DNA of 50,348 nt from Acutalibacteraceae bacterium (GTDB lineage Bacteria; Bacillota; Clostridia; Oscillospirales; Acutalibacteraceae), in contig JAZUOC010000258.1 in assembly GCA_045604465.1 (NCBI GenBank), positions 1-50,348 on the forward strand, in the 5' to 3' direction. Shown in pieces: positions 36,410 through 44,414 of the stretch; position 1 is the first letter of the stretch; each line of letters starts with the position of its first letter. A model generated the notes under the pieces. That model worked only from the letters and a program-made list of their open reading frames with translations. It had not been told where the DNA came from and did not search any database. The translations under genes were made by a program, and so were the position numbers.

Positions 36410-36425
36410 GATAAACAGGTGCATT
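36391..36425 (-). terminator. Hairpin at the end of the radical SAM gene
   Basis: Minus strand reads AATGCACCTG (36425-36416), a 15-nt loop, then CAGGTGCATT (36400-36391), followed by TGTATTATTAT. Confidence 0.5.
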
Positions 36426-37188
36426 ATTTGTTTAATTGTGGCTTATACTCCGACAATATCTGCATAATATCCTTCTCATGAATATTATTTCCTAAAATAT
36501 CTCCCTTTGCGCCGAAGCACACTGCCCGTATATCCGCAGGGTCCTCCTGATAGGGATTTTTTCTTTCCTCATTCAAATCAAAGTATTCGCCCAAATATTT
36601 CAGGGCATTACCGCTTGGAAATATAATATTGCCCTCATTTTCTTCTATTCCTAATTCTTTGAAGGGAATCAGATATATTCTCGTTTTGATATTATAATAA
36701 TTATCATCCCGGTCACTTACAAGCCAAGCAGGCTGTGTCTTAATGGGTATTCCCTCTTTCAGAGCTGCTTTTGCAAAGGTCTCCACATATTCAACAGGGA
36801 TAGTCTCCTGATGAAAAGCATCGACAGAAAGCAGAATTTCATTTACGCCGCTTTCTTTAAGCTTCCGGGCAATAAGTTTTATCTTATCAGCTTTCTTATT
36901 GAAATAGCCATTGGTTATAAGCTGTCTTTTCGGAATGTTCATTTCTGTGGCAGCCTTATGTATTTCGCATACCGTATCGGGAAAGAGTAAAGGCTCACCG
37001 CCGAAGGTCATAACCGAGGTTATGTTATACTCCTCTGCGATTTTACGCACAGCGTCAGCGGCTATAGTTTTGTCGATATTATCGGTACATCCTGTGTGGT
37101 CGCCTTGAGAGCAGTGCTTGCATTTGCCTGTACAAGCCATAGTGACAAGAAATTCTATGCGGTTAAGGTTTTTGAGGTATTTGTTCAT
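36424..37188 (-). CDS. Radical SAM protein, unknown function
   Basis: 254 aa. MACTGKCKHCS (CxxxCxxC) near the N-terminus and FGGEPLL. I see no SPASM-type Cys cluster. Confidence 0.75.
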   Translation of the reverse strand: MNKYLKNLNRIEFLVTMACTGKCKHCSQGDHTGCTDNIDKTIAADAVRKIAEEYNITSVMTFGGEPLLFPDTVCEIHKAATEMNIPKRQLITNGYFNKKADKIKLIARKLKESGVNEILLSVDAFHQETIPVEYVETFAKAALKEGIPIKTQPAWLVSDRDDNYYNIKTRIYLIPFKELGIEENEGNIIFPSGNALKYLGEYFDLNEERKNPYQEDPADIRAVCFGAKGDILGNNIHEKDIMQILSEYKPQLNK

Positions 37189-37993
37189 TAGTATATCCTT
37201 TCAACCATTGTACAGAATTTTTCAGTCCGTCAACAGTTTTTGTTTCTAAAACAACACGGCAGTTTTGTTCATTCGCAAGGTCGAGATACTGTCGGATATT
37301 CATTTCACCTGTACCGAGTGCAAGGTGATTTTTTCTACCTTTAGCATCATGCAAATGAATATGTCTCAATCTGTCTTTACGTTTCATAATAAATTCTTCG
37401 TCAGTGCCACCGATACCGTAATTATGTCCTACATCAAAAGTCAGAGCAAAAACTTTGCTTTTTAATAATAAATCAATAGCCTCTTTTTGGAAATCCTCGT
37501 AACCGTCACAGTTTTCAATACAGATTTTTATGTCAGCATCGTCAATAGTAATGTCGCACATATCTCGGAAATCAATAATGCCTTTAAAATACTGTTCTTT
37601 GTATTGCGAAAAAAGAAACGTCTTTCTTTCAGGCAAAGTAAAATATACACCTTTTGACATATGCATATTCAAAACCTTTATGTTAAGTTGCTTTGCAAGT
37701 TCTATGGTTTCAATAACGGTTTTGATATATGCTTTTGCTATGTAAGAATTAAAATCACATACATTTAAATTTTCATCAAGGTGAAGGGTGTAATAAATAC
37801 CGTATTTTTCAGCAATATTTCTAAAAAATTCTATATCAATTTTATGAAACTGATATTGAGGAAGGTTCATATTAAGTTCAATAAAATCAAGCCCTAATAC
37901 CGAACAAAGATTTGCACATTCTTCAATTTTGTCCGTTTCAATCAATGTAGGCATTCCATAGCTTATATGCTCCATATTTTTATCGCATTTCAT
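37163..37993 (-). CDS. Xylose-isomerase-like TIM-barrel protein (sugar phosphate isomerase/epimerase family)
   Basis: 276 aa. Patterns LGLDFIELN, NMHMS, CIEN, FDVGH and IHLHD are typical of AP-endonuclease-2/TIM-barrel family members. The start is uncertain (37993, 37975 or 37954, none with a good SD). It overlaps both neighbours. Confidence 0.65.
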   Translation of the reverse strand: MKCDKNMEHISYGMPTLIETDKIEECANLCSVLGLDFIELNMNLPQYQFHKIDIEFFRNIAEKYGIYYTLHLDENLNVCDFNSYIAKAYIKTVIETIELAKQLNIKVLNMHMSKGVYFTLPERKTFLFSQYKEQYFKGIIDFRDMCDITIDDADIKICIENCDGYEDFQKEAIDLLLKSKVFALTFDVGHNYGIGGTDEEFIMKRKDRLRHIHLHDAKGRKNHLALGTGEMNIRQYLDLANEQNCRVVLETKTVDGLKNSVQWLKGYTNEQIPQKP

Positions 37994-38471
37994 TTAAAAA
38001 TTCATCTGCCTCTTCTCTCGATTTAAAAATTATCACCTGTTTTTCTTCTTTATACCTGTCAAGCAATTCATATATATAAGGCAAGGTGTTATTAGGAAAA
38101 TCCTCTATAAATTTTCTGAATTCGGGGTCTAATTCCTTTTCGAGCCACGGCAAATCGTATCTTTCTTTACCTATCCGGTCTGTTACGCCCTGTAGACAGA
38201 CCTCTGTGGGCAAATCAAAGAGAAAAACCGTATCGCACTCTCTGAGCCTCATTTCTATGGTTCTTTTATAATTCCCGTCGATTATCCATTCCTCTTCGGA
38301 GAAGATTCCGGATATTCTTTCGTCGAACTCTTCCCGGGGAATATGTGTTTTATCGGGCTTATGCCATATAGCATCGAGGTAATATAAGGGTAGTCCCGTT
38401 ATTTTGTTCAGCTTTTCTGCGAAGGTTGTCTTACCCGAGCCGGGACAGCCGATAACGATTACTTTTTTCAT
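37980..38471 (-). CDS. P-loop NTPase, adenylate-kinase-like (topology modulation protein FlaR-like)
   Basis: 163 aa. VIVIGCPGSGKTTFAEKL Walker A. Size and pattern match the FlaR/AAA-kinase family. Confidence 0.7.
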   Translation of the reverse strand: MKKVIVIGCPGSGKTTFAEKLNKITGLPLYYLDAIWHKPDKTHIPREEFDERISGIFSEEEWIIDGNYKRTIEMRLRECDTVFLFDLPTEVCLQGVTDRIGKERYDLPWLEKELDPEFRKFIEDFPNNTLPYIYELLDRYKEEKQVIIFKSREEADEFLNEMR

Positions 38472-38472
38472 A

Positions 38473-39027
38473 TCACTTTAACTCTTTCTGCATATAGAAT
38501 AAATCCTGATAGGTACCATCCTTAAGCTTACAGATTTTCGGCTTTACGGCTACGGTTTCAAATCCGAATTTCTCATAGAGAGCCTTTCCTCTTTCGTTGC
38601 CTTCAAGATATTCAAGCTCAATTATTTCAGTGCCTTCGTGTTCTTTTGCGATTTCTGTAAGCTCCGTAAACATAGCGGAGCCGATACCTATATTCCAATA
38701 ATCCTTAAGAATAGCAATTCCTATACCGGCTCTGTGAGAGGTTTTCATGTCACTGAAAAATGTAATATCACAGGAGCCGACGGTTTTACCTTCGATGTAG
38801 CAGGCGATTATAAGGTTGCGGTCTGATTCCCTGTTGCCGGAAATCCATTTTTCTTCGTCTTCTACGGAAAAGCCTTTCCAGTCTTCAGCGCAACGTGAGA
38901 GAAAATCTGTTTCTGCGCTTGCGGCTTGAACAGTGCTGAGAAGCATTTCCGCATCTGCGATTTCAGGTGTTTTCAGTAGAGCTGCTATGCCGTTTTTCAG
39001 AATAATTTCCTTTTCGTTAAATATCAC
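38473..39027 (-). CDS. GNAT-family N-acetyltransferase (RimJ/RimL-like)
   Basis: 184 aa. AILKDYWNIGIGSAMF (acetyl-CoA loop) and ALYEKFGF. GTG start 6 nt after a GGAGGG SD. Confidence 0.8.
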   Translation of the reverse strand: MIFNEKEIILKNGIAALLKTPEIADAEMLLSTVQAASAETDFLSRCAEDWKGFSVEDEEKWISGNRESDRNLIIACYIEGKTVGSCDITFFSDMKTSHRAGIGIAILKDYWNIGIGSAMFTELTEIAKEHEGTEIIELEYLEGNERGKALYEKFGFETVAVKPKICKLKDGTYQDLFYMQKELK

Positions 39028-39320: not shown

Positions 39321-39349
39321 TTGACAGAAAGCTGTAATTTTGGTAAAAT
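39321..39349 (+). promoter_or_regulatory. SigmaA promoter of the SCP2-aminotransferase-transketolase operon
   Basis: TTGACA (39321-39326), a 17-nt spacer, then TAAAAT (39344-39349), with a TGg extended -10. Confidence 0.7.
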
Positions 39350-39418
39350 ATCTACAACTGCAATTGGTTGCAAAAGAAATTTCGGGTGAGTATCCGCTCA
39401 CCGAAGGAGGATTATATC

Positions 39419-40180
39419 ATGATGACAGATGCAAAAACCTTAGCGTACATAAACATGTATGCTATCCTGGGTACTCTGGAAAACCTTTGCGAACTTGATA
39501 AGGAAGCAAGTGAGCTCGTTAAGACAAAGAAGCCTGTTTCCGTAGGTCTCGAAGTAAAGGGCGGTCCCAGTGCTACTCTCACCTTCGCTAACGGAAGATG
39601 CAGAATGGAACAGGGCACAGCAAACTGTGACGTTCTTCTTCCCTTCTCTTCCTGCGAAAAGTTTAACGGTCTCATCGACGGTACCGTTACTCCCATTCCT
39701 TCAAAGGGCTTTACTAAGATAGGCTTCCTTCTTAAGAAGTTCACTCCCCTTACGGATATTCTTTCCAAGTACCTTAAGGCTACCGAAGAAGATCTCAAGG
39801 ATGATAAGTTCTTTGAAATCAGCACAAAGCTTATGTTCTATGTCATCACCGTTGCTCTTTCACAGATCGGTAACAATGATGAAATCGGTAAGTTCAGCGC
39901 AAGCCTTATCCCCGACGGCATCATCGATGTTTCCATCAAGGACTGCGTGGCTTCCACCATTCAGGTTAAAGACAGCCATATGATCACAATCAAGGAAAAG
40001 CCCGAAGCTTTCCGTTCACAGATGCAGTTCTGCGACATCAGAACCGCAAGAGCTCTCTTCGACGGTAAAATCAATGCCATCGCTTCCATAGGCGAAGGTC
40101 TGATCGAAATGCACGGTCTTATCAATATGATCGACAACGTAAACAGAATACTTGACAGAGTAGCACTCTATCTTGCATAA
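39419..40180 (+). CDS. Double SCP2-like (sterol-carrier-protein fold) protein, paralog A
   Basis: 253 aa. Two halves each follow the SCP2 pattern (..VSVGLEVKGGPSATLTFANGRCRMEQG..CDVLLPFSSCEKFNGLIDGTVTP.. and ..DVSIKDCVASTIQVKD..MQFCDIRTARALFDGKINAIASIGEGLIEMHG..). The ATG follows a GAAGGAGG SD. Confidence 0.55.
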   Translation: MMTDAKTLAYINMYAILGTLENLCELDKEASELVKTKKPVSVGLEVKGGPSATLTFANGRCRMEQGTANCDVLLPFSSCEKFNGLIDGTVTPIPSKGFTKIGFLLKKFTPLTDILSKYLKATEEDLKDDKFFEISTKLMFYVITVALSQIGNNDEIGKFSASLIPDGIIDVSIKDCVASTIQVKDSHMITIKEKPEAFRSQMQFCDIRTARALFDGKINAIASIGEGLIEMHGLINMIDNVNRILDRVALYLA

Positions 40181-40193
40181 GGAGGAATTAATA

Positions 40194-41459
40194 ATGAGCT
40201 TTCCTATTTATAACACTGAAAAAAGCAGAGAAATGTTCACCAGAGCGACAAAAGTAATTCCTTCAGGTATCTACGGCCACCTCGGCCCCGCTGAAGGTCA
40301 GTTCATCCCTGTTAATAAATGGCCTATGTTTGCTGAAAAGGCAAAGGGTACTTATGTATGGGACGTAGACGGCAACAAGTACATCGACTATATGTGTGCT
40401 TACGGCCCCAACGTTTTAGGCTACTGTGATCCCGACGTAGACGCTGCTGCTGCAAAGCAGACCGCGCTCGGTAACTGTACTACTCAGCCCGGCAAGGTTA
40501 TGGTCGAATGTGCTGAGCTTTTAGTAGACACCGTAGCTACTGCTGACTGGGCTTTCTTCGCAAAGAACGGTAACGATGCTACTCAGGGTGCTATTATGTG
40601 CGCCAGAGCATATACACACAGAAAAAAGGTTATCATGTTCTCCGGCTACTATCACGGTGTTTCACCCTGGTGTCAGAAGATCGACTATCCGGGTGTTCTT
40701 CCCGAGGACGTAGCCAATAACATTATGCTTCCCTGGAACGATATTCCTCTTTTAGAGAGAACTATCGAAGAAAATAAAAATGAAATCGCATGTCTTATCG
40801 CTCAGCCCTATGACCACGGTAACTTCCATGATAACGCATTCCCCGAAGAAGGCTTCTGGCCGAAGGTAAGAGAAATCTGTACAAAGAATGACATCGTTCT
40901 TATCGTAGACGACGTTCGTGCAGGCTTCCGTCTCGACCTTAAAGGCTCTGACCATTTCTTCGGCTTCGAGGCTGACCTTATCTGCTTCTGCAAGGCACTG
41001 GCTAACGGCTATAATATGTCAGCTATCTGCGGTAAGGAATTCCTTAAGGGCGCTATGAGCTCTCTCGCATACACAGGCTCCTACTGGCTTTCAGCTGTTC
41101 CCTTCGCAGCCTGTATCGCAAACATCAATAAGATGAAAGAGCTTGACATTCCCACTATGTTCAAGCAGAAAGGCGAAATGCTCTGTGACGGTCTCGTAAA
41201 AGCAGGTAAGGAGCACGGTATAGACCTGGTAGTATCAGGTGCTCCCGCTCTCTTCTACTTAAGAATAGGTAACGATGACAGCATGCTTCTCCATCAGGAA
41301 TGGATCGCTGAAATGGTTTCAAGAGGTATCTTCCTCGCATCTCACCATAACCACTTCATCAACGCCGCTCTTTCCACAAAGGACATCAAGCACTCAATCG
41401 AGGTTGCTGAGGAATGCTTCGGCGTCGTAGCAAAGAATCATCCCGAGCTTTTCAGATAA
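40194..41459 (+). CDS. Class-III PLP-dependent aminotransferase (glutamate-1-semialdehyde aminomutase-like)
   Basis: 421 aa. GTYVWDVDGNKYIDY, VDDVRAGFRL (cf. DEVMTGFR) and FCKALANG (PLP lysine position). AAGGAGG SD. Confidence 0.85.
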   Translation: MSFPIYNTEKSREMFTRATKVIPSGIYGHLGPAEGQFIPVNKWPMFAEKAKGTYVWDVDGNKYIDYMCAYGPNVLGYCDPDVDAAAAKQTALGNCTTQPGKVMVECAELLVDTVATADWAFFAKNGNDATQGAIMCARAYTHRKKVIMFSGYYHGVSPWCQKIDYPGVLPEDVANNIMLPWNDIPLLERTIEENKNEIACLIAQPYDHGNFHDNAFPEEGFWPKVREICTKNDIVLIVDDVRAGFRLDLKGSDHFFGFEADLICFCKALANGYNMSAICGKEFLKGAMSSLAYTGSYWLSAVPFAACIANINKMKELDIPTMFKQKGEMLCDGLVKAGKEHGIDLVVSGAPALFYLRIGNDDSMLLHQEWIAEMVSRGIFLASHHNHFINAALSTKDIKHSIEVAEECFGVVAKNHPELFR

Positions 41460-41524
41460 TCAAGTGAATCTTTCTCCCCTTAAGGGAGAATAAAATAACA
41501 TCATTATAAATGGAGGAAAACATT

Positions 41525-42403
41525 ATGCCACTTTCAAAAAACGAATGGCTTGCTCTCGAAAAGAAAGCTTATGATCTGCGTAAGCTTACGGTTCAGACCA
41601 CCGTATGGGCAGGCAGCGGACATTTCGGCGGCGGTATGAGCGTCATGGACCTTCTTACCGTTCTCTATCACAAGTATCTCAACATCAAGGTTGACGATCC
41701 CAAATGGGAAGACAGAGACCGCTTCATCCTTTCAAAGGGTCACGCAGCTATCGCTTATGCTCCCGTGCTCTGCGACAAAGGCTTCAACGATGTAGAAATG
41801 CTCAAATCCTTTAACCTTTCCGGTTCAAAGATGGGTATGCACCTCGACTCAAATAAGGTTGTCGGCGTAGACGCATCCACAGGCTCACTCGGCCACGGTC
41901 CTTCCATCGCAGCAGGTACCGCTCTCGCAGCAAGACTTCTCGGTAAGGATTATCTTACATACGTTGTTACCGGTGACGGTGAACTCGGTGAAGGCTCATG
42001 CTGGGAAGGCTTTATGACCATCAATCACTACAACCTTTCCAACTGTATCGTATTCATTGACAGAAACCACAATATGATCGACGGTAACACCGAAGACATC
42101 AAAAAGCTCGAGCCTCTTGCAGACAAGATGACAGCTTTCGGCTTCAACACTATCGTTGTTGACGGTAACAATATCGGTGAGCTTTGCGATGCTATCGACA
42201 AGGCTATCGAAAGATCAAAGGAGCCCTGTGCACCTACATGTATTCTTATGGATACCAAAAAGGGCGCAGGTATCAAATCAATTGAAGGCGATTACACATG
42301 GCACTACGGCGCTATCGACGATGCTCTTTTCGAAAAATTCAATAAGGAACTCGACGAAGATTACAAGGCACGCTGCGCTCGTGCAGAAAAGGAGGGCAAA
42401 TAA
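41525..42403 (+). CDS. Transketolase, N-terminal (ThDP/PP-domain) subunit
   Basis: 292 aa. GSGHFGGGMSVMDLLTVLY, SKGHAA, GSLGHG, VTGDGELGEGSCWE. The ATG at 41525 lies 8 nt after GGAGG. Confidence 0.9.
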   Translation: MPLSKNEWLALEKKAYDLRKLTVQTTVWAGSGHFGGGMSVMDLLTVLYHKYLNIKVDDPKWEDRDRFILSKGHAAIAYAPVLCDKGFNDVEMLKSFNLSGSKMGMHLDSNKVVGVDASTGSLGHGPSIAAGTALAARLLGKDYLTYVVTGDGELGEGSCWEGFMTINHYNLSNCIVFIDRNHNMIDGNTEDIKKLEPLADKMTAFGFNTIVVDGNNIGELCDAIDKAIERSKEPCAPTCILMDTKKGAGIKSIEGDYTWHYGAIDDALFEKFNKELDEDYKARCARAEKEGK

Positions 42404-42405
42404 TT

Positions 42406-43413
42406 ATGGCAGGCGGATTTGTTTACACAGCAGTTGACCAGACTTCTCTTTCCACAGCTGAAATTTACGGTAAGGCTCTTGCTGACATTATTTTAAAGGA
42501 CCCCAAGGTTGTTGCCATCACAGCAGACCTTGCTAAATCTACAAAACTCGGCGACGTTCTTAAGGTTTGCCCCGAAAGAGTTATCAATGTAGGTATCGCA
42601 GAGCAGGATATGTTCGGTGTAGCTGCAGGTATGGCCAGAGCAGGTATGATCCCCTTCCTTTCAGGCTTCTCAGCATTCACATCAATGAGAGCATGTGACC
42701 AGCTCCACACAGACATCTGCTACCAGAATGTAAACGCTAAGATTATCGCTACACATTCAGGTACCTCCTTCGGTCAGGCAGGCTCCACTCACCACGCTAT
42801 CACTGACCTCGCTATTACTAGAGCAATGCCCAACCTTACAGTTATCGTTCCCGCTGACGGCTTCGAAACAGCAAACGCTGTAAACGCAGCTTACGAAAAC
42901 TTCGGTCCCTACTATATCCGTATCAACCGCGGATTTGACCGTGTTCTTTATGAAAATCAGGACTACGGCTTCGAGGTAGGTAAGGCAGTGGAGGTTCACG
43001 AGGGTACAGATATTACTGTTATCGCTTGCTGCTCCTGCGCATTCCAGGCACGTGAAGCAGCTAAGTTCCTCAAAAACTCTGACGGACTCAGCGTTCGTGT
43101 TCTTAATATGCACACTATCAGCCCCATCGACGTTGAGGCTATCCAGAAGGCTATTTCCGAAACAAGAAGAATCGTTACAGTAGAAGACCACCTCGTTACA
43201 GGCGGCCTCGGTTCAGCTGTCGCTGAGGTTATGGCTCAGTACGGTAAGGGCTGTGCATTCAAGATGCTCGGTCATACGGGCTTCGCTATGATCGGTCTCC
43301 ACGAGGATATTATGTCCGATGCAGGCATCGACGCTAACGGTATCATCGCTGCAGTCCGCGAAACAATGAACGCAGACTTCGAAGAAGACGACAACTGGGA
43401 CGACGAATTCTAA
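42406..43413 (+). CDS. Transketolase, C-terminal (Pyr-domain) subunit
   Basis: 335 aa. NVGIAEQDMFGVAAGMA, THSGTSFGQAGSTHH, VEDHLVTGGLGSAV. It starts 2 nt after the N-subunit stop. Confidence 0.9.
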   Translation: MAGGFVYTAVDQTSLSTAEIYGKALADIILKDPKVVAITADLAKSTKLGDVLKVCPERVINVGIAEQDMFGVAAGMARAGMIPFLSGFSAFTSMRACDQLHTDICYQNVNAKIIATHSGTSFGQAGSTHHAITDLAITRAMPNLTVIVPADGFETANAVNAAYENFGPYYIRINRGFDRVLYENQDYGFEVGKAVEVHEGTDITVIACCSCAFQAREAAKFLKNSDGLSVRVLNMHTISPIDVEAIQKAISETRRIVTVEDHLVTGGLGSAVAEVMAQYGKGCAFKMLGHTGFAMIGLHEDIMSDAGIDANGIIAAVRETMNADFEEDDNWDDEF

Positions 43414-43435
43414 TTAATACAAGGAGGCAAAGATT

Positions 43436-44239
43436 ATGGCTCATACAAAAGAAGCCTTATACTCAAATAAAATTTTCCTTAATGCAGCTTTGCCGCTTGT
43501 AAAGGTTATTGCAAACGATATTCCCTCTCTTAAGAAAAAGTTCGAAAATGTGGAAGCAGTTATCCAGGTAAGCTGTCTTGATCCCGAATGTGAGGACGGC
43601 AAGCAGGGTATGCACTTCATCGTAAACAAGGGCGAATGGCTCGTTCACACCTGTCTTACGGAAAATCCCGACATCGAGCTTACCTTCAAGAGCATGGAAG
43701 CTCTCAATGATTTCTTCAAGGGCAATATTACTCCTGCAGGTATTCCCAAAATCAAAGGTCTCAAGAAGGCTCCCGTACTCATTTCTTTCGTAATGGTACT
43801 TCTTAAGATGGCTGACCTTCTCGGTGCTACCGAGCCTCCCAAGGATGAAGAAACAAAGGAATTACTCGTAAAATGTTATTTCTATCTTCTTTCCAGCGGT
43901 ATCAGTCAGCTTAACAAGCTCGGACATCCCGAGATCAGAGACTGGACCTCGAAGAGCCCTGACCGTGTTTATGCTTTCGCAGTCGACGGTTATCCCCAGG
44001 TAGGCGCTTACCTTCGTATCAAGGCAGGTAAATCCCGTGCAGGCCGTGGCGAATATAAGAGAGCTATGCCCTTCTTCACTCTTCGCTTCAATAACCTTGA
44101 CAGCGCACTCGGTATCCTTATGAGTATCGACGATATGCTCGAGGCTACCAAGGCAGGCCGTCTCGTTATGGACGGCGGTCCCGAATTCGGTGCACAGATC
44201 GGTGGATTTATGCTTGAAATCGGCGCACTTGCTAAATAA
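43436..44239 (+). CDS. Double SCP2-like protein, paralog B
   Basis: 267 aa, collinear with paralog A (LTFKSMEALNDFFKGNITPAGIPKIKGLKK vs LLPFSSCEKFNGLIDGTVTPIPSKGFTK; C-terminus RLVMDGGPEFGAQIGGFMLEIG vs GLIEMHGLINMIDNVNRILDRV). AAGGAGG SD. Confidence 0.55.
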   Translation: MAHTKEALYSNKIFLNAALPLVKVIANDIPSLKKKFENVEAVIQVSCLDPECEDGKQGMHFIVNKGEWLVHTCLTENPDIELTFKSMEALNDFFKGNITPAGIPKIKGLKKAPVLISFVMVLLKMADLLGATEPPKDEETKELLVKCYFYLLSSGISQLNKLGHPEIRDWTSKSPDRVYAFAVDGYPQVGAYLRIKAGKSRAGRGEYKRAMPFFTLRFNNLDSALGILMSIDDMLEATKAGRLVMDGGPEFGAQIGGFMLEIGALAK

Positions 44240-44311
44240 ATGCAAAATCGCGGGCGAGAGTGTGACCGGAGAAAATACCGTCACCGCCCCGTAAAGGCTG
44301 ATTAATAATTT

Positions 44312-44345
44312 CAAGGACACGGCTAGCCGTGTCCTTGGTTTTTCC
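44312..44345 (+). terminator. Intrinsic terminator of the operon
   Basis: CAAGGACACGG-CTAG-CCGTGTCCTTG followed by GTTTTTCC. Confidence 0.9.
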
Positions 44346-44349
44346 TTTA

Positions 44350-44378
44350 TTGAAATGTGAGTATACTTATGGTAGAAT
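44350..44378 (+). promoter_or_regulatory. SigmaA promoter of the orphan Cys4 gene
   Basis: TTGAAA (44350-44355), a 17-nt spacer, then TAGAAT (44373-44378), with a TGg extension. Confidence 0.65.
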
Positions 44379-44414
44379 GTTTTGGGGATAAGATTTGTGA
44401 AAAGAGGTACTATT

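Follow-up and report, generated by a model that had tools for sequence, protein, structure and literature searches.

A five-gene operon in the window, a 50,348-nt stretch of Acutalibacteraceae DNA (contig JAZUOC010000258.1), points to an undescribed route that breaks down, or makes, sphingosine-like lipids. Hundreds of uncultured gut Clostridia carry the operon, and a rearranged form occurs in soil bacteria; a literature search on the gene set found no publication, in agreement with the first-pass annotation, which knew of no such pathway. Our preferred reading, to which we give a probability of roughly 0.45, is that the five genes form a self-contained module whose two soluble enzymes process a long-chain 2-amino-1,3-diol lipid of membrane origin, each with its own tandem-SCP2 carrier. 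This reading draws on the SCP2 folds of the flanking proteins, a FumI-like aminotransferase, a transketolase (TK) that has lost R358 and D469, an invariant gene order, conserved gene pairings, TKC::S2 fusions, and a variant with a hydroxylase.

The five co-directional genes, S1-AT-TKN-TKC-S2, lie between one promoter and one terminator:

39321..39349, + strand: sigma-70-type promoter with extended -10 (TTGACA-17-TG-n-TAAAAT; 11/12 in the promoter scan)
39385..39402, + strand: small 5'-UTR hairpin (GGTGAG-TATCCG-CTCACC) directly 5' of the SD, read from the sequence
39419..40180, + strand: S1, 253 aa, tandem-SCP2 protein, the paralog tied to the aminotransferase
40194..41459, + strand: AT, 421 aa, class-III PLP aminotransferase of the FumI (aminopentol aminotransferase) type
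41525..42403, + strand: TKN, 292 aa, split-transketolase subunit with the ThDP-binding PP-domain
42406..43413, + strand: TKC, 335 aa, split-transketolase subunit with Pyr and C-terminal domains, an altered substrate channel and an acidic Trp tail
43436..44239, + strand: S2, 267 aa, tandem-SCP2 protein, the paralog tied to the transketolase
44311..44345, + strand: intrinsic terminator, 12-bp stem (44311-44338) with 7 GC pairs and a 4-nt loop, followed by a T run

Intergenic gaps are 13, 65, 2, and 22 nt in operon order, and a GGAGG-type SD precedes all five start codons. Promoter, layout, gaps, SDs, and terminator had all been proposed from the sequence and were borne out. An upstream ATG at 41510 was rejected as the TKN start since it lacks an SD; 41525 has GGAGG 7 nt upstream, and the orthologs are 292 aa long. 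Orthologous loci keep the promoter hexamers at an equal distance from S1. They also keep the position of the 5'-UTR hairpin, with different stem sequences, and a search of the hairpin against Rfam gave no match. With a near-consensus promoter and no linked regulator, expression looks constitutive rather than substrate-induced.

By their predicted structures and family profiles, S1 and S2 are full-length paralogs, each a tandem duplication of the SCP2 fold. Foldseek searches with the AF2 models of S1 (pLDDT 92.8) and S2 (pLDDT 96.6, pTM 0.92) returned SCP2-fold structures as the only significant matches (E<=0.001); the best matches of S1 include UbiJ-SCP2 and human SCP-2L, with a TM of about 0.67 per target. 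The N-half and C-half profiles of these SCP2x2 proteins match each other (97.3%, E 2.4e-11), indicating an internal duplication. A Pfam search of the S1 and S2 sequences themselves found no match, but PF02036 is matched by 19 of 39 family members, in one half or the other. The earlier assignment of two SCP2-type folds to each flanking protein thus stands, through the family rather than through a direct Pfam match. To call the two proteins clear paralogs was generous by pairwise BLASTP (E 8e-8, 34% over 87 aa) and is solid by profile-profile comparison (hhalign of the S1 and S2 families: 98.9%, E 2.8e-17, 243 columns).

The SCP2 fold is known to hold hydrophobic ligands. Its members bind many kinds of hydrophobic molecule, an observation that weighs against the module proposal. 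In the Ubi metabolon, an SCP2 protein holds the lipid intermediate for soluble enzymes. The closest functional parallel to S1 and S2 is offered by UbiJ (and UbiT; PDB 6h6n/o/p), SCP2-fold accessory proteins of ubiquinone biosynthesis that rank with the best Foldseek matches; they differ in having a single SCP2 domain, polyprenyl quinone precursors as ligands, no detectable sequence similarity, and no linkage to ThDP or PLP enzymes.

AT belongs to Pfam Aminotran_3 (2.9e-42) and contains the motifs DDVRAGFR and FCKALANG, the latter with the PLP lysine. It scores below every NCBIfam cutoff, hemL included (TIGR00713, 211 bits where the cutoff asks for 527). The best PDB match is 6hbs, 'Aminopentol aminotransferase' (FumI; E 8e-84, 285 bits, 36% identity, 406 aa), with GSAM at about 170. 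The low TIGR00713 score and the better FumI match rule out HemL, so the hemL orthology that the first-pass annotation had named as one mark of a fortuitous housekeeping cluster falls away. FumI (Sphingopyxis sp. MTA144; PDB 6hbs/6hbv) takes as substrate hydrolysed fumonisin B1, a long-chain sphinganine mimic with 2-amino and 3-hydroxy groups, and turns it into its 2-ketone with pyruvate as acceptor (PMC3136697). That the nearest solved relative of AT uses a sphinganine analogue supports the earlier guess of an amino-diol or sphingoid substrate, a function that we infer from sequence relationships. The identity to FumI is only 36%, and FumI works on an aminopentol that is 1-deoxy rather than a 1,3-diol; both speak against the proposal. 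In one locus (L119) a bona fide alanine dehydrogenase lies directly 3' of TKN-TKC-S2, which fits alanine/pyruvate as the amino pair.

Pfam domains confirm the reading of the next two genes as the ThDP and Pyr halves of a transketolase: TKN matches Transketolase_N (3.9e-39) and contains the motif GDGELGEG, and TKC matches Transket_pyr and Transketolase_C. Their best PDB matches are 6yak, for TKN (N-chain), and 6yaj, for TKC, of the split TK of Carboxydothermus hydrogenoformans (ChTK; PMC7661550), with which they share the alpha2beta2-type split, the ThDP motif, the cofactor Glu, and the catalytic His. TKN keeps the GDG...N motif and the His equivalents of E. coli H26, H66, H100, and H261; TKC retains E411, S385, H461, H473, and R520 (E. 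coli numbering). However, where ChTK has R358 and E468-D469, the operon TK has Ala and Gln-Ala (R358 to A18, E468 to Q124, D469 to A125), and its TKC carries a C-terminal acidic Trp tail (..EEDDNWDDEF) and has a tandem-SCP2 partner, adjoining or fused. The residue signature is identical in 72/72 TKC orthologs except at the R358 position, which is Ala in 55 and Ser in 17. R358 and D469 are also absent from every SCP2x2-linked TK of other phyla, and the tail Trp is invariant in all SCP2x2-linked TKCs.

In E. coli TK, R358 binds the phosphate, and D469 binds a sugar hydroxyl and selects the stereoisomer (PMC11387542); mutations at these sites shift the enzyme toward non-phosphorylated, non-polar aldehydes (PMC5073344, PMC7661550). 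Judged by its residues, the operon TK is not a canonical pentose-phosphate enzyme, as no ortholog keeps R358 or D469. The missing R358 should also impair binding of the sugar phosphates that normally serve as acceptors, a point against the module proposal. Conserved H100 and H473, which bind the donor C1-hydroxyl, argue for a true 1-hydroxy-2-ketone and against 1-deoxy substrates of the fumonisin type, such as that of FumI.

Could the five genes be a fortuitous housekeeping cluster, in which a pentose-phosphate split TK sits beside a HemL-type aminomutase and two unrelated small proteins? Split transketolases are common in Clostridia, and AT matches GSAM models at 2e-62 to 3e-67. This explanation is nonetheless close to refuted: the GSAM and hemL scores are far under curated cutoffs and FumI fits much better, the phosphate-binding Arg and the GEDG-motif Asp are replaced in every ortholog, and the genes move together. 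All Oscillospirales loci with sufficient flanking sequence (57/80) show the five genes in one order while the flanking genes differ, and this order recurs in a metagenomic contig of 46% GC (L123). Distant high-GC metagenomic bacteria have the permuted order TKN-TKC-S2-S1-AT. Across rearranged loci and distant lineages, S1-type genes are always immediately 5' of AT, and S2-type genes are always directly 3' of TKC or fused to it (TKC::S2 in P0249/L086 and L099). The neighbourhood survey suggested in the first-pass annotation thus found the five families together far beyond close relatives, with either the order or the TKC-S2 and S1-AT pairings kept.

In the module that we propose, the substrate would be a sphingoid-base-type amino alcohol. 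S1 would lift the lipid from the membrane and hand it to the FumI-type AT, which would move the amino group from C2 onto an oxo-acid, pyruvate if FumI is a guide, and so give a 1,3-dihydroxy-2-ketone. S2 would dock on TK, possibly via the acidic Trp tail of TKC, and offer the lipid ketol as donor substrate. The specialised TK would then cut C2-C3, releasing a fatty aldehyde; the glycolaldehyde unit would stay on ThDP until it is set free or taken up by an acceptor aldehyde. In sum, a cationic antibacterial head group would be removed, and the C2 unit, nitrogen, and acyl chain would be salvaged. Stereochemistry speaks against the proposal: natural D-erythro sphingoid bases would yield a ketol of (3R) configuration, but transketolases canonically use (3S) donors. 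TK would therefore need inverted or relaxed stereoselectivity, unless the true substrate is threo-configured.

AT and TK are both reversible, so the module could run in either direction. In the biosynthetic direction, TK would join an S2-held fatty aldehyde to a C2 ketol unit donated by hydroxypyruvate or a ketose, and AT with S1 would aminate the product to a sphinganine-like 2-amino-1,3-diol, which would amount to sphingoid-base synthesis without serine palmitoyltransferase (SPT) in Firmicutes. The constitutive-looking promoter agrees with this direction, and the L119 alanine dehydrogenase could equally supply alanine as amino donor. A TK-transaminase route to 2-amino-1,3-diols is also established in synthetic biocatalysis, where an engineered cascade runs the same two reaction types in series. 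Its TKs, mutated at D469, R358, and R520, take non-phosphorylated aliphatic or aromatic aldehydes (PMC5073344, PMC7661550), and D469/R358 substitutions are needed for non-hydroxylated aliphatic acceptors. The cascade is, however, man-made, short-chain, and carrier-free, whereas the equivalent substitutions in the operon TK are natural and conserved across phyla.

We consider biosynthesis unlikely. Near the operon, neither an acyl-ACP/CoA reductase nor any other source of aldehyde is conserved, and genes for an N-acyltransferase, a ceramide synthase, a kinase, or a head group are likewise missing; loss of R358 would hamper ketose-phosphate donors too. To our knowledge, sphingolipids have not been reported from the host clade. 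FumI and its cluster are catabolic: a Sphingopyxis fumonisin-type cluster encodes a FumI ortholog (88% identical), a ThDP enzyme, and a Zn-ADH, and thus pairs an aminotransferase with a ThDP enzyme as the operon does. The nearest characterised enzyme, this shared logic, and the missing aldehyde-generating and ceramide-forming genes make us lean towards degradation. The fum-type ThDP enzyme differs in having an acetolactate-synthase/POX rather than a transketolase fold, and that cluster lacks SCP2 proteins and includes carboxylesterase, tricarballylate, and TonB-receptor genes that the operon does not have. Against the degradative module, too, the operon shows no consistent association with a ceramidase, transporter, aldehyde dehydrogenase, or regulator.

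Another hydrophobic amine or ketol, still carried by the SCP2 proteins, is an improbable substrate, about on a par with the biosynthetic direction; candidates are dietary sphinganine-analogue mycotoxins (fumonisin/AAL aminopolyols), an amino alcohol of polyketide or isoprenoid origin, or an aryl amino-diol. FumI itself takes a fumonisin aminopentol, the (3S) alcohol of fumonisin-type bases fits canonical TK stereochemistry better than D-erythro bases do, and the hosts, by record titles rumen, pig, chicken, and human gut bacteria, are exposed to feed. SCP2 folds also carry quinone intermediates, as the UbiJ match illustrates. Anisomycin biosynthesis offers a natural pair that handles an aromatic substrate: AniP, a TK-like enzyme without sugar-phosphate-binding residues, works with the aminotransferase AniQ on a non-phosphorylated hydrophobic substrate (PMC11387542); AniP differs in being single-chain, lacking the histidine-rich motif, and using an aryl-pyruvate donor, and it belongs to a Streptomyces secondary-metabolite cluster without SCP2 proteins. 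Against a fumonisin-type substrate stand the conserved H100 and H473 and the absence of carboxylesterase and tricarballylate genes near the operon. Matching stretches in at least 572 places in species-representative genomes suggest a common substrate, not a sporadic toxin.

If a sphingoid substrate is correct, the operon shares its substrate or product class with SPT and with the sphingosine kinase and S1P lyase route. Cleavage by S1P lyase likewise falls between C2 and C3 and leaves a fatty aldehyde. Both this lyase and SPT are PLP enzymes that belong to other fold types, with no ThDP step, the kinase-lyase route phosphorylates before cleavage, and SPT, kinase, and lyase genes are absent from the operon.

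The composition of the module varies around TK. About 20 loci have S1 and AT replaced by a member of a membrane lipid-hydroxylase family (PF04116; nearest NCBIfam model OlsE); most soil loci have a fatty-acid-hydroxylase-family protein at this position, and single loci have a Zn-dependent or GFO-type dehydrogenase. TK and S2 may form the conserved core, with S1 and AT as one among several exchangeable partner steps. The hydroxylase variant, which has no amine-handling enzyme, weighs against the module proposal in that it argues against a dependence of this core on amines in particular.

Constant gene order and non-conserved flanks indicate that five genes of the window, encoding two tandem-SCP2 paralogs (S1 and S2, 253 and 267 aa), a class-III aminotransferase (AT), and the ThDP-binding (TKN) and Pyr plus C-terminal (TKC) subunits of a split transketolase (TK), form a self-contained unit. 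The five-gene plus-strand operon of the first-pass annotation is present as described, including its ORFs, gaps, Shine-Dalgarno sequences, promoter, and terminator:

39321-39349, upstream of S1: near-consensus promoter with an extended -10
39419-40180 (+): S1 ORF
40194-41459 (+): AT ORF
41525-42403 (+): TKN ORF
42406-43413 (+): TKC ORF
43375-43410: acidic, Trp-containing tail of TKC (..EEDDNWDDEF; DDDWEDE, ENWEDE, and similar elsewhere)
43436-44239 (+): S2 ORF
44311-44338: terminator, a 12-bp stem followed by a T run

The ORFs are separated by 13, 65, 2, and 22 nt, a GGAGG Shine-Dalgarno sequence precedes each of the five starts, and the promoter hexamers are kept at the same position in the orthologous loci of other species. 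A hairpin (GGTGAG-TATCCG-CTCACC, 39385-39402) lies in the 5'-UTR immediately upstream of the S1 Shine-Dalgarno sequence; orthologous loci carry a hairpin at the same site with different stem sequences, and an Rfam scan of the whole window, this hairpin included, gave no match.

When one genome per GTDB species was scanned, an S2 relative was encoded in at least 572 stretches. The best 80 of these all belong to MAGs of Acutalibacteraceae/Oscillospirales recovered from the guts of humans, ruminants, pigs, rabbits, and chickens, and the neighborhood survey proposed in the first-pass annotation recovered the order S1-AT-TKN-TKC-S2 in every one of them with enough upstream sequence. The genes flanking the operon differ between species; a transporter, regulator, ceramidase, or aldehyde dehydrogenase was sought as a conserved flank and none was found.

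Identity to the window is unevenly distributed along the operon. Some lineages (L053, L059, L060, L077, L084) have TK genes 92–96% identical to those of the window and are elsewhere diverged (S1 59–61%, AT 70–72%, S2 67–70%), to the same extent as lineages whose TK is only 73–77% identical (L028-L032). This mosaic suggests either exchange of TK genes between lineages or far stronger constraint on TK. Two contigs of a single MAG (JAZNWZ01, 'Candidatus Fimenecus sp.'; L051 and L084) each carry a copy of the module, with S2 70% and 67% identical to that of the window, respectively, reflecting either two operon copies per genome or bin contamination.

S1 and S2 had been read as paralogs, each composed of two SCP2 folds. 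Neither protein matches Pfam (E ≤ 0.1) or NCBIfam, and searches of PDB sequences returned chance matches only; the suggested direct match to the Pfam SCP2 family (PF02036) was thus not obtained, but the fold was recovered from structural models. In the SCP2 fold, helices at the N terminus and one at the C terminus flank a five-stranded sheet, and together they enclose a hydrophobic tunnel. AlphaFold (AF2) models of S2 (pLDDT 96.6, pTM 0.92) and S1 (pLDDT 92.8) show the order helix / five strands / helix twice in each protein, and every Foldseek match of either model to the PDB at E ≤ 0.001 is an SCP2-fold protein, among them AF1534, TT1886, human SCP2, SCP-2L, UbiJ-SCP2, and the SCP2 domain of alkylsulfatase. 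The family is small: among 1.84 billion cluster representatives, an HMMER search recovered only 186 S2 relatives. PF02036 is matched by 19 of 39 diverse members (best 2e-11), in the N-terminal half of some and the C-terminal half of others, with most of the matches inspected scoring under the 21.3-bit cutoff; profiles of the two halves match one another (hhalign 97.3%, E 2.4e-11). Compared pairwise, S1 and S2 show modest similarity (E 8e-8 across 87 residues), but their family profiles match over the full length (hhalign 98.9%, E 2.8e-17), in line with paralogy. This evidence together confirms S1 and S2 as double-SCP2 proteins at the level of the fold; both are putative binders of a hydrophobic ligand.

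AT is a class-III PLP enzyme (PF00202, 145 bits against a cutoff of 30.5), in which the Schiff-base Lys of FCKALANG aligns with that of CWGKCFANG in FumI, the aminopentol (hydrolysed fumonisin B1) aminotransferase of Sphingopyxis sp. MTA144. FumI is also its nearest solved relative (PDB 6hbs/6hbv; E 8e-84, 285 bits, residues 8-416; 36% identity to 6hbs over 406 residues), ahead of glutamate-1-semialdehyde aminomutase structures at ~170 bits. With the hemL equivalog TIGR00713 (NCBIfam), AT scores 210.8 bits, so far under the cutoff of 527 that it is not HemL, a relationship that the first-pass annotation had named as a potential objection. FumI strips the C2 amino group off hydrolysed fumonisin B1, a sphinganine analogue, leaving a 2-ketone; it prefers pyruvate as acceptor and does not accept 2-oxoglutarate (PMC3136697). 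Judged by its nearest characterised relative over the full length, AT would be a FumI-type enzyme, its putative reaction being the deamination of a long-chain 2-amino-3-hydroxy lipid with pyruvate as the acceptor. Environmental operons encode ATs that are 41–45% identical to that of the window (three full-length genes) and 40% identical to FumI.

TKN and TKC both most resemble the split TK of Carboxydothermus hydrogenoformans (ChTK). Residue numbers below are those of E. coli TK, taken from a fragment that we presume to be accurate and in which all landmark residues fell on the expected amino acids. TKN contains the ThDP/Mg motif GDGELGEG...N, and alignments with 6yak, human TK, and the E. coli fragment show conservation of the cofactor-activating Glu (E411) and of the catalytic His residues H26, H66, H100, H261, and H473, so that the two His residues that bind the C1 hydroxyl of the donor, H100 and H473, are kept. 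The substrate channel is altered. In E. coli TK, R358, S385, H461, and R520 hold the substrate phosphate and D469 forms a hydrogen bond to a sugar hydroxyl, selecting between stereoisomers (PMC11387542); mutations at these very sites change the preference of TK, which then favors non-phosphorylated, non-polar aldehydes over phosphorylated sugars (PMC5073344, PMC7661550). In the window TKC, S385, H461, and R520 are kept, R358 is replaced by Ala18, and E468-D469 by Gln124-Ala125, leaving the sugar-phosphate set of pentose-phosphate-type TK (EC 2.2.1.1) incomplete and D469 missing as well. These channel replacements occur in 72/72 orthologs, with Ala or Ser at the R358 position in all 72. By its predicted active site, the operon TK is a specialised enzyme and not the housekeeping one of the pentose-phosphate pathway. 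The active-site replacements, together with the sub-cutoff hemL score, led us to reject a reading of the operon as a housekeeping cluster of pentose-phosphate TK and HemL.

The distant relatives separate a constant core from exchangeable partners. Distant S2-family members were traced, and 38 further loci came from scanning metagenomes with a high-GC sub-alignment. Among the loci mapped, whose GC contents range from 37% to 76%, almost all have an S2-type gene directly 3' of TKC; in two (P0249/L086 and L099), TKC and S2 are fused into a single protein. One locus (L123) has the window order S1-AT-TKN-TKC-S2, and five (L110, L113, L121, L122, L126) have TKN-TKC-S2-S1-AT. HMM scoring assigns the TKC-adjacent copy always to the S2 type and the AT-adjacent copy always to the S1 type. 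In ~20 other loci, TKN-TKC-S2 is followed by a membrane protein of the fatty-acid-hydroxylase family (PF04116) in place of S1 and AT; its closest NCBIfam model, the ornithine-lipid hydroxylase OlsE, is a weak match. The core is adjoined by a Zn-dependent dehydrogenase of the secondary-alcohol type in L087, by a GFO/IDH/MocA oxidoreductase in L098, and by a true alanine dehydrogenase directly after TKN-TKC-S2 in L119 (TIGR00518, 508 bits). The last is only a hint: it fits alanine/pyruvate as the amino pair and leaves the direction of the pathway unset. A candidate alanine dehydrogenase in L123 was rejected; the gene is PntA, beside PntB. Two S2-family members have no adjacent TK (L091:2093-3629 and L089:971-2099): one lies directly 3' of a histone-deacetylase/AcuC-family gene (GC 65%) and the other follows ribosomal protein L20 on a contig with a GC content of 29%.

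All TKs linked to tandem SCP2 have lost both R358 and the E468-D469 pair. The pair is Gln-Ala in the window, in all type-B loci, and in AT-linked TKs, and Gln-Gly in type-A and fused TKs; the hydroxylase-linked variant combines Gln-Gly with H461 replaced by Leu. Every separate TKC subunit linked to tandem SCP2 (L085-L128) has an acidic C-terminal tail in which one Trp is invariant. This tail is absent from the ChTK comparison sequence, taken from the PDB alignment, and in the TKC–S2 fusions a Ser/Thr/Pro linker stands in its place. The C-terminal half of S2 bears conserved basic residues (R194, K196, R204, and R209 in the S2-family alignment), and the tail may serve as a docking peptide for S2.

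We infer that the conserved core comprises TK and its own tandem-SCP2 partner, with AT and its SCP2 protein, a lipid hydroxylase, or a secondary-alcohol dehydrogenase as variable partners, each of which could form or remove a ketone or hydroxyl group on the head end of a hydrophobic chain. A FumI-like AT combined with a TK that retains the residues binding the C1 hydroxyl and has lost those for the phosphate and the next hydroxyl points to a long-chain 1,3-dihydroxy-2-ketone as the simplest substrate. In such a pathway, AT would transaminate a 2-amino-1,3-diol (sphingoid base) to the long-chain 1,3-dihydroxy-2-ketone, and TK would cut the C2-C3 bond of this lipid ketol to release a fatty aldehyde and a C2 unit. 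We tentatively favor this catabolic or detoxifying direction, at slightly below even odds (about 0.45), because FumI itself is catabolic, because a Sphingopyxis-type fum cluster pairs a FumI ortholog with a ThDP enzyme, and because no aldehyde-generating or ceramide-forming gene is linked to the module in any locus mapped. The same lack of linked genes speaks against the reverse route, in which these gut Firmicutes (Acutalibacteraceae/Oscillospirales) and some soil bacteria would make sphingoid-type 2-amino-1,3-diol lipids de novo, independently of serine palmitoyltransferase: TK would extend a carrier-held fatty aldehyde by a C2 ketol, and the FumI-type AT would aminate the product. We give this route a low but real probability; if true, it would give sphingoid bases their first alternative origin and Firmicutes their first sphingolipid-type biosynthesis. 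Stereochemistry counts against sphingoid-base cleavage, as the ketol derived from D-erythro sphingoid bases would be (3R), the reverse of the configuration in canonical TK donors. The substrate could be some other hydrophobic amino alcohol, and the hydroxylase-linked variant shows that the TK–S2 core is not tied to amines.

The fum-type cluster (L130:93-16212) offers by analogy a catabolic precedent for the sequence aminotransferase, then ThDP enzyme. It encodes a FumI ortholog (88% identical to FumI), a carboxylesterase, tricarballylate genes (CitB, FAD oxidoreductase), a TonB receptor, a Zn-ADH, and a ThDP enzyme of the ALS/POX fold. We know of no description of what this ThDP enzyme does after FumI; it may cleave a 2-keto-3-hydroxy unit. 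A FumI homolog of Variovorax (70% identity) is encoded among peptide-transporter and amidase genes, a setting that provided no useful parallel. The closest counterparts described so far are FumI with its cluster, canonical split TK, the TK-aminotransferase pair AniP/AniQ of anisomycin biosynthesis (PMC11387542), UbiJ-type SCP2 accessory proteins, and the engineered TK-transaminase cascade, none of which joins a transketolase to dedicated SCP2 carriers. A literature search found no description of this gene set, which we regard as a probable lipid-amine-processing cluster whose parts come from known superfamilies and are combined in a way not described before.

The gut contains abundant free sphingoid bases, which originate from diet, host, and Bacteroidota and are bactericidal; to our knowledge, little has been worked out about the ways in which Gram-positive commensals tolerate or exploit them. 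If the operon handles sphingoid bases, it would cut (or build) their C2-C3 bond without phosphorylation, give widespread uncultured gut bacteria a route to alter host-relevant sphingolipid pools, and possibly supply enzymes against sphinganine-analogue mycotoxins in feed. Whatever the substrate, a natural TK lineage bears the active-site changes that engineers introduced for non-phosphorylated aliphatic substrates, and a new tandem-SCP2 family is dedicated to, sometimes fused with, and putatively docked on a ThDP enzyme, a pairing that widens the concept of the soluble metabolon on a lipid to systems other than ubiquinone synthesis. The operon's components are all small and soluble.

Upstream of the operon and divergent from it, 36424-39027 (-) encodes a GNAT acetyltransferase, a small P-loop kinase-like protein, a xylose-isomerase-like TIM-barrel protein, and a radical-SAM protein; this four-gene run was not found adjoining the operon in other species. 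Just past the terminator, a small Cys-rich ORF (147–158 aa; 44382-44858, +) follows a promoter-like site of its own (44350-44378) and has no Pfam match and no homolog in the other operon loci. Convergent to the operon are two secreted alpha/beta-hydrolase-like proteins, whose lipase/hydrolase matches are weak and sub-threshold, and a 608-aa MFS transporter (44949-46400, 46603-48249, and 48387-50213, all -). In a 94%-identical relative (L006), a homolog sits downstream; the adjacency is not conserved more widely.
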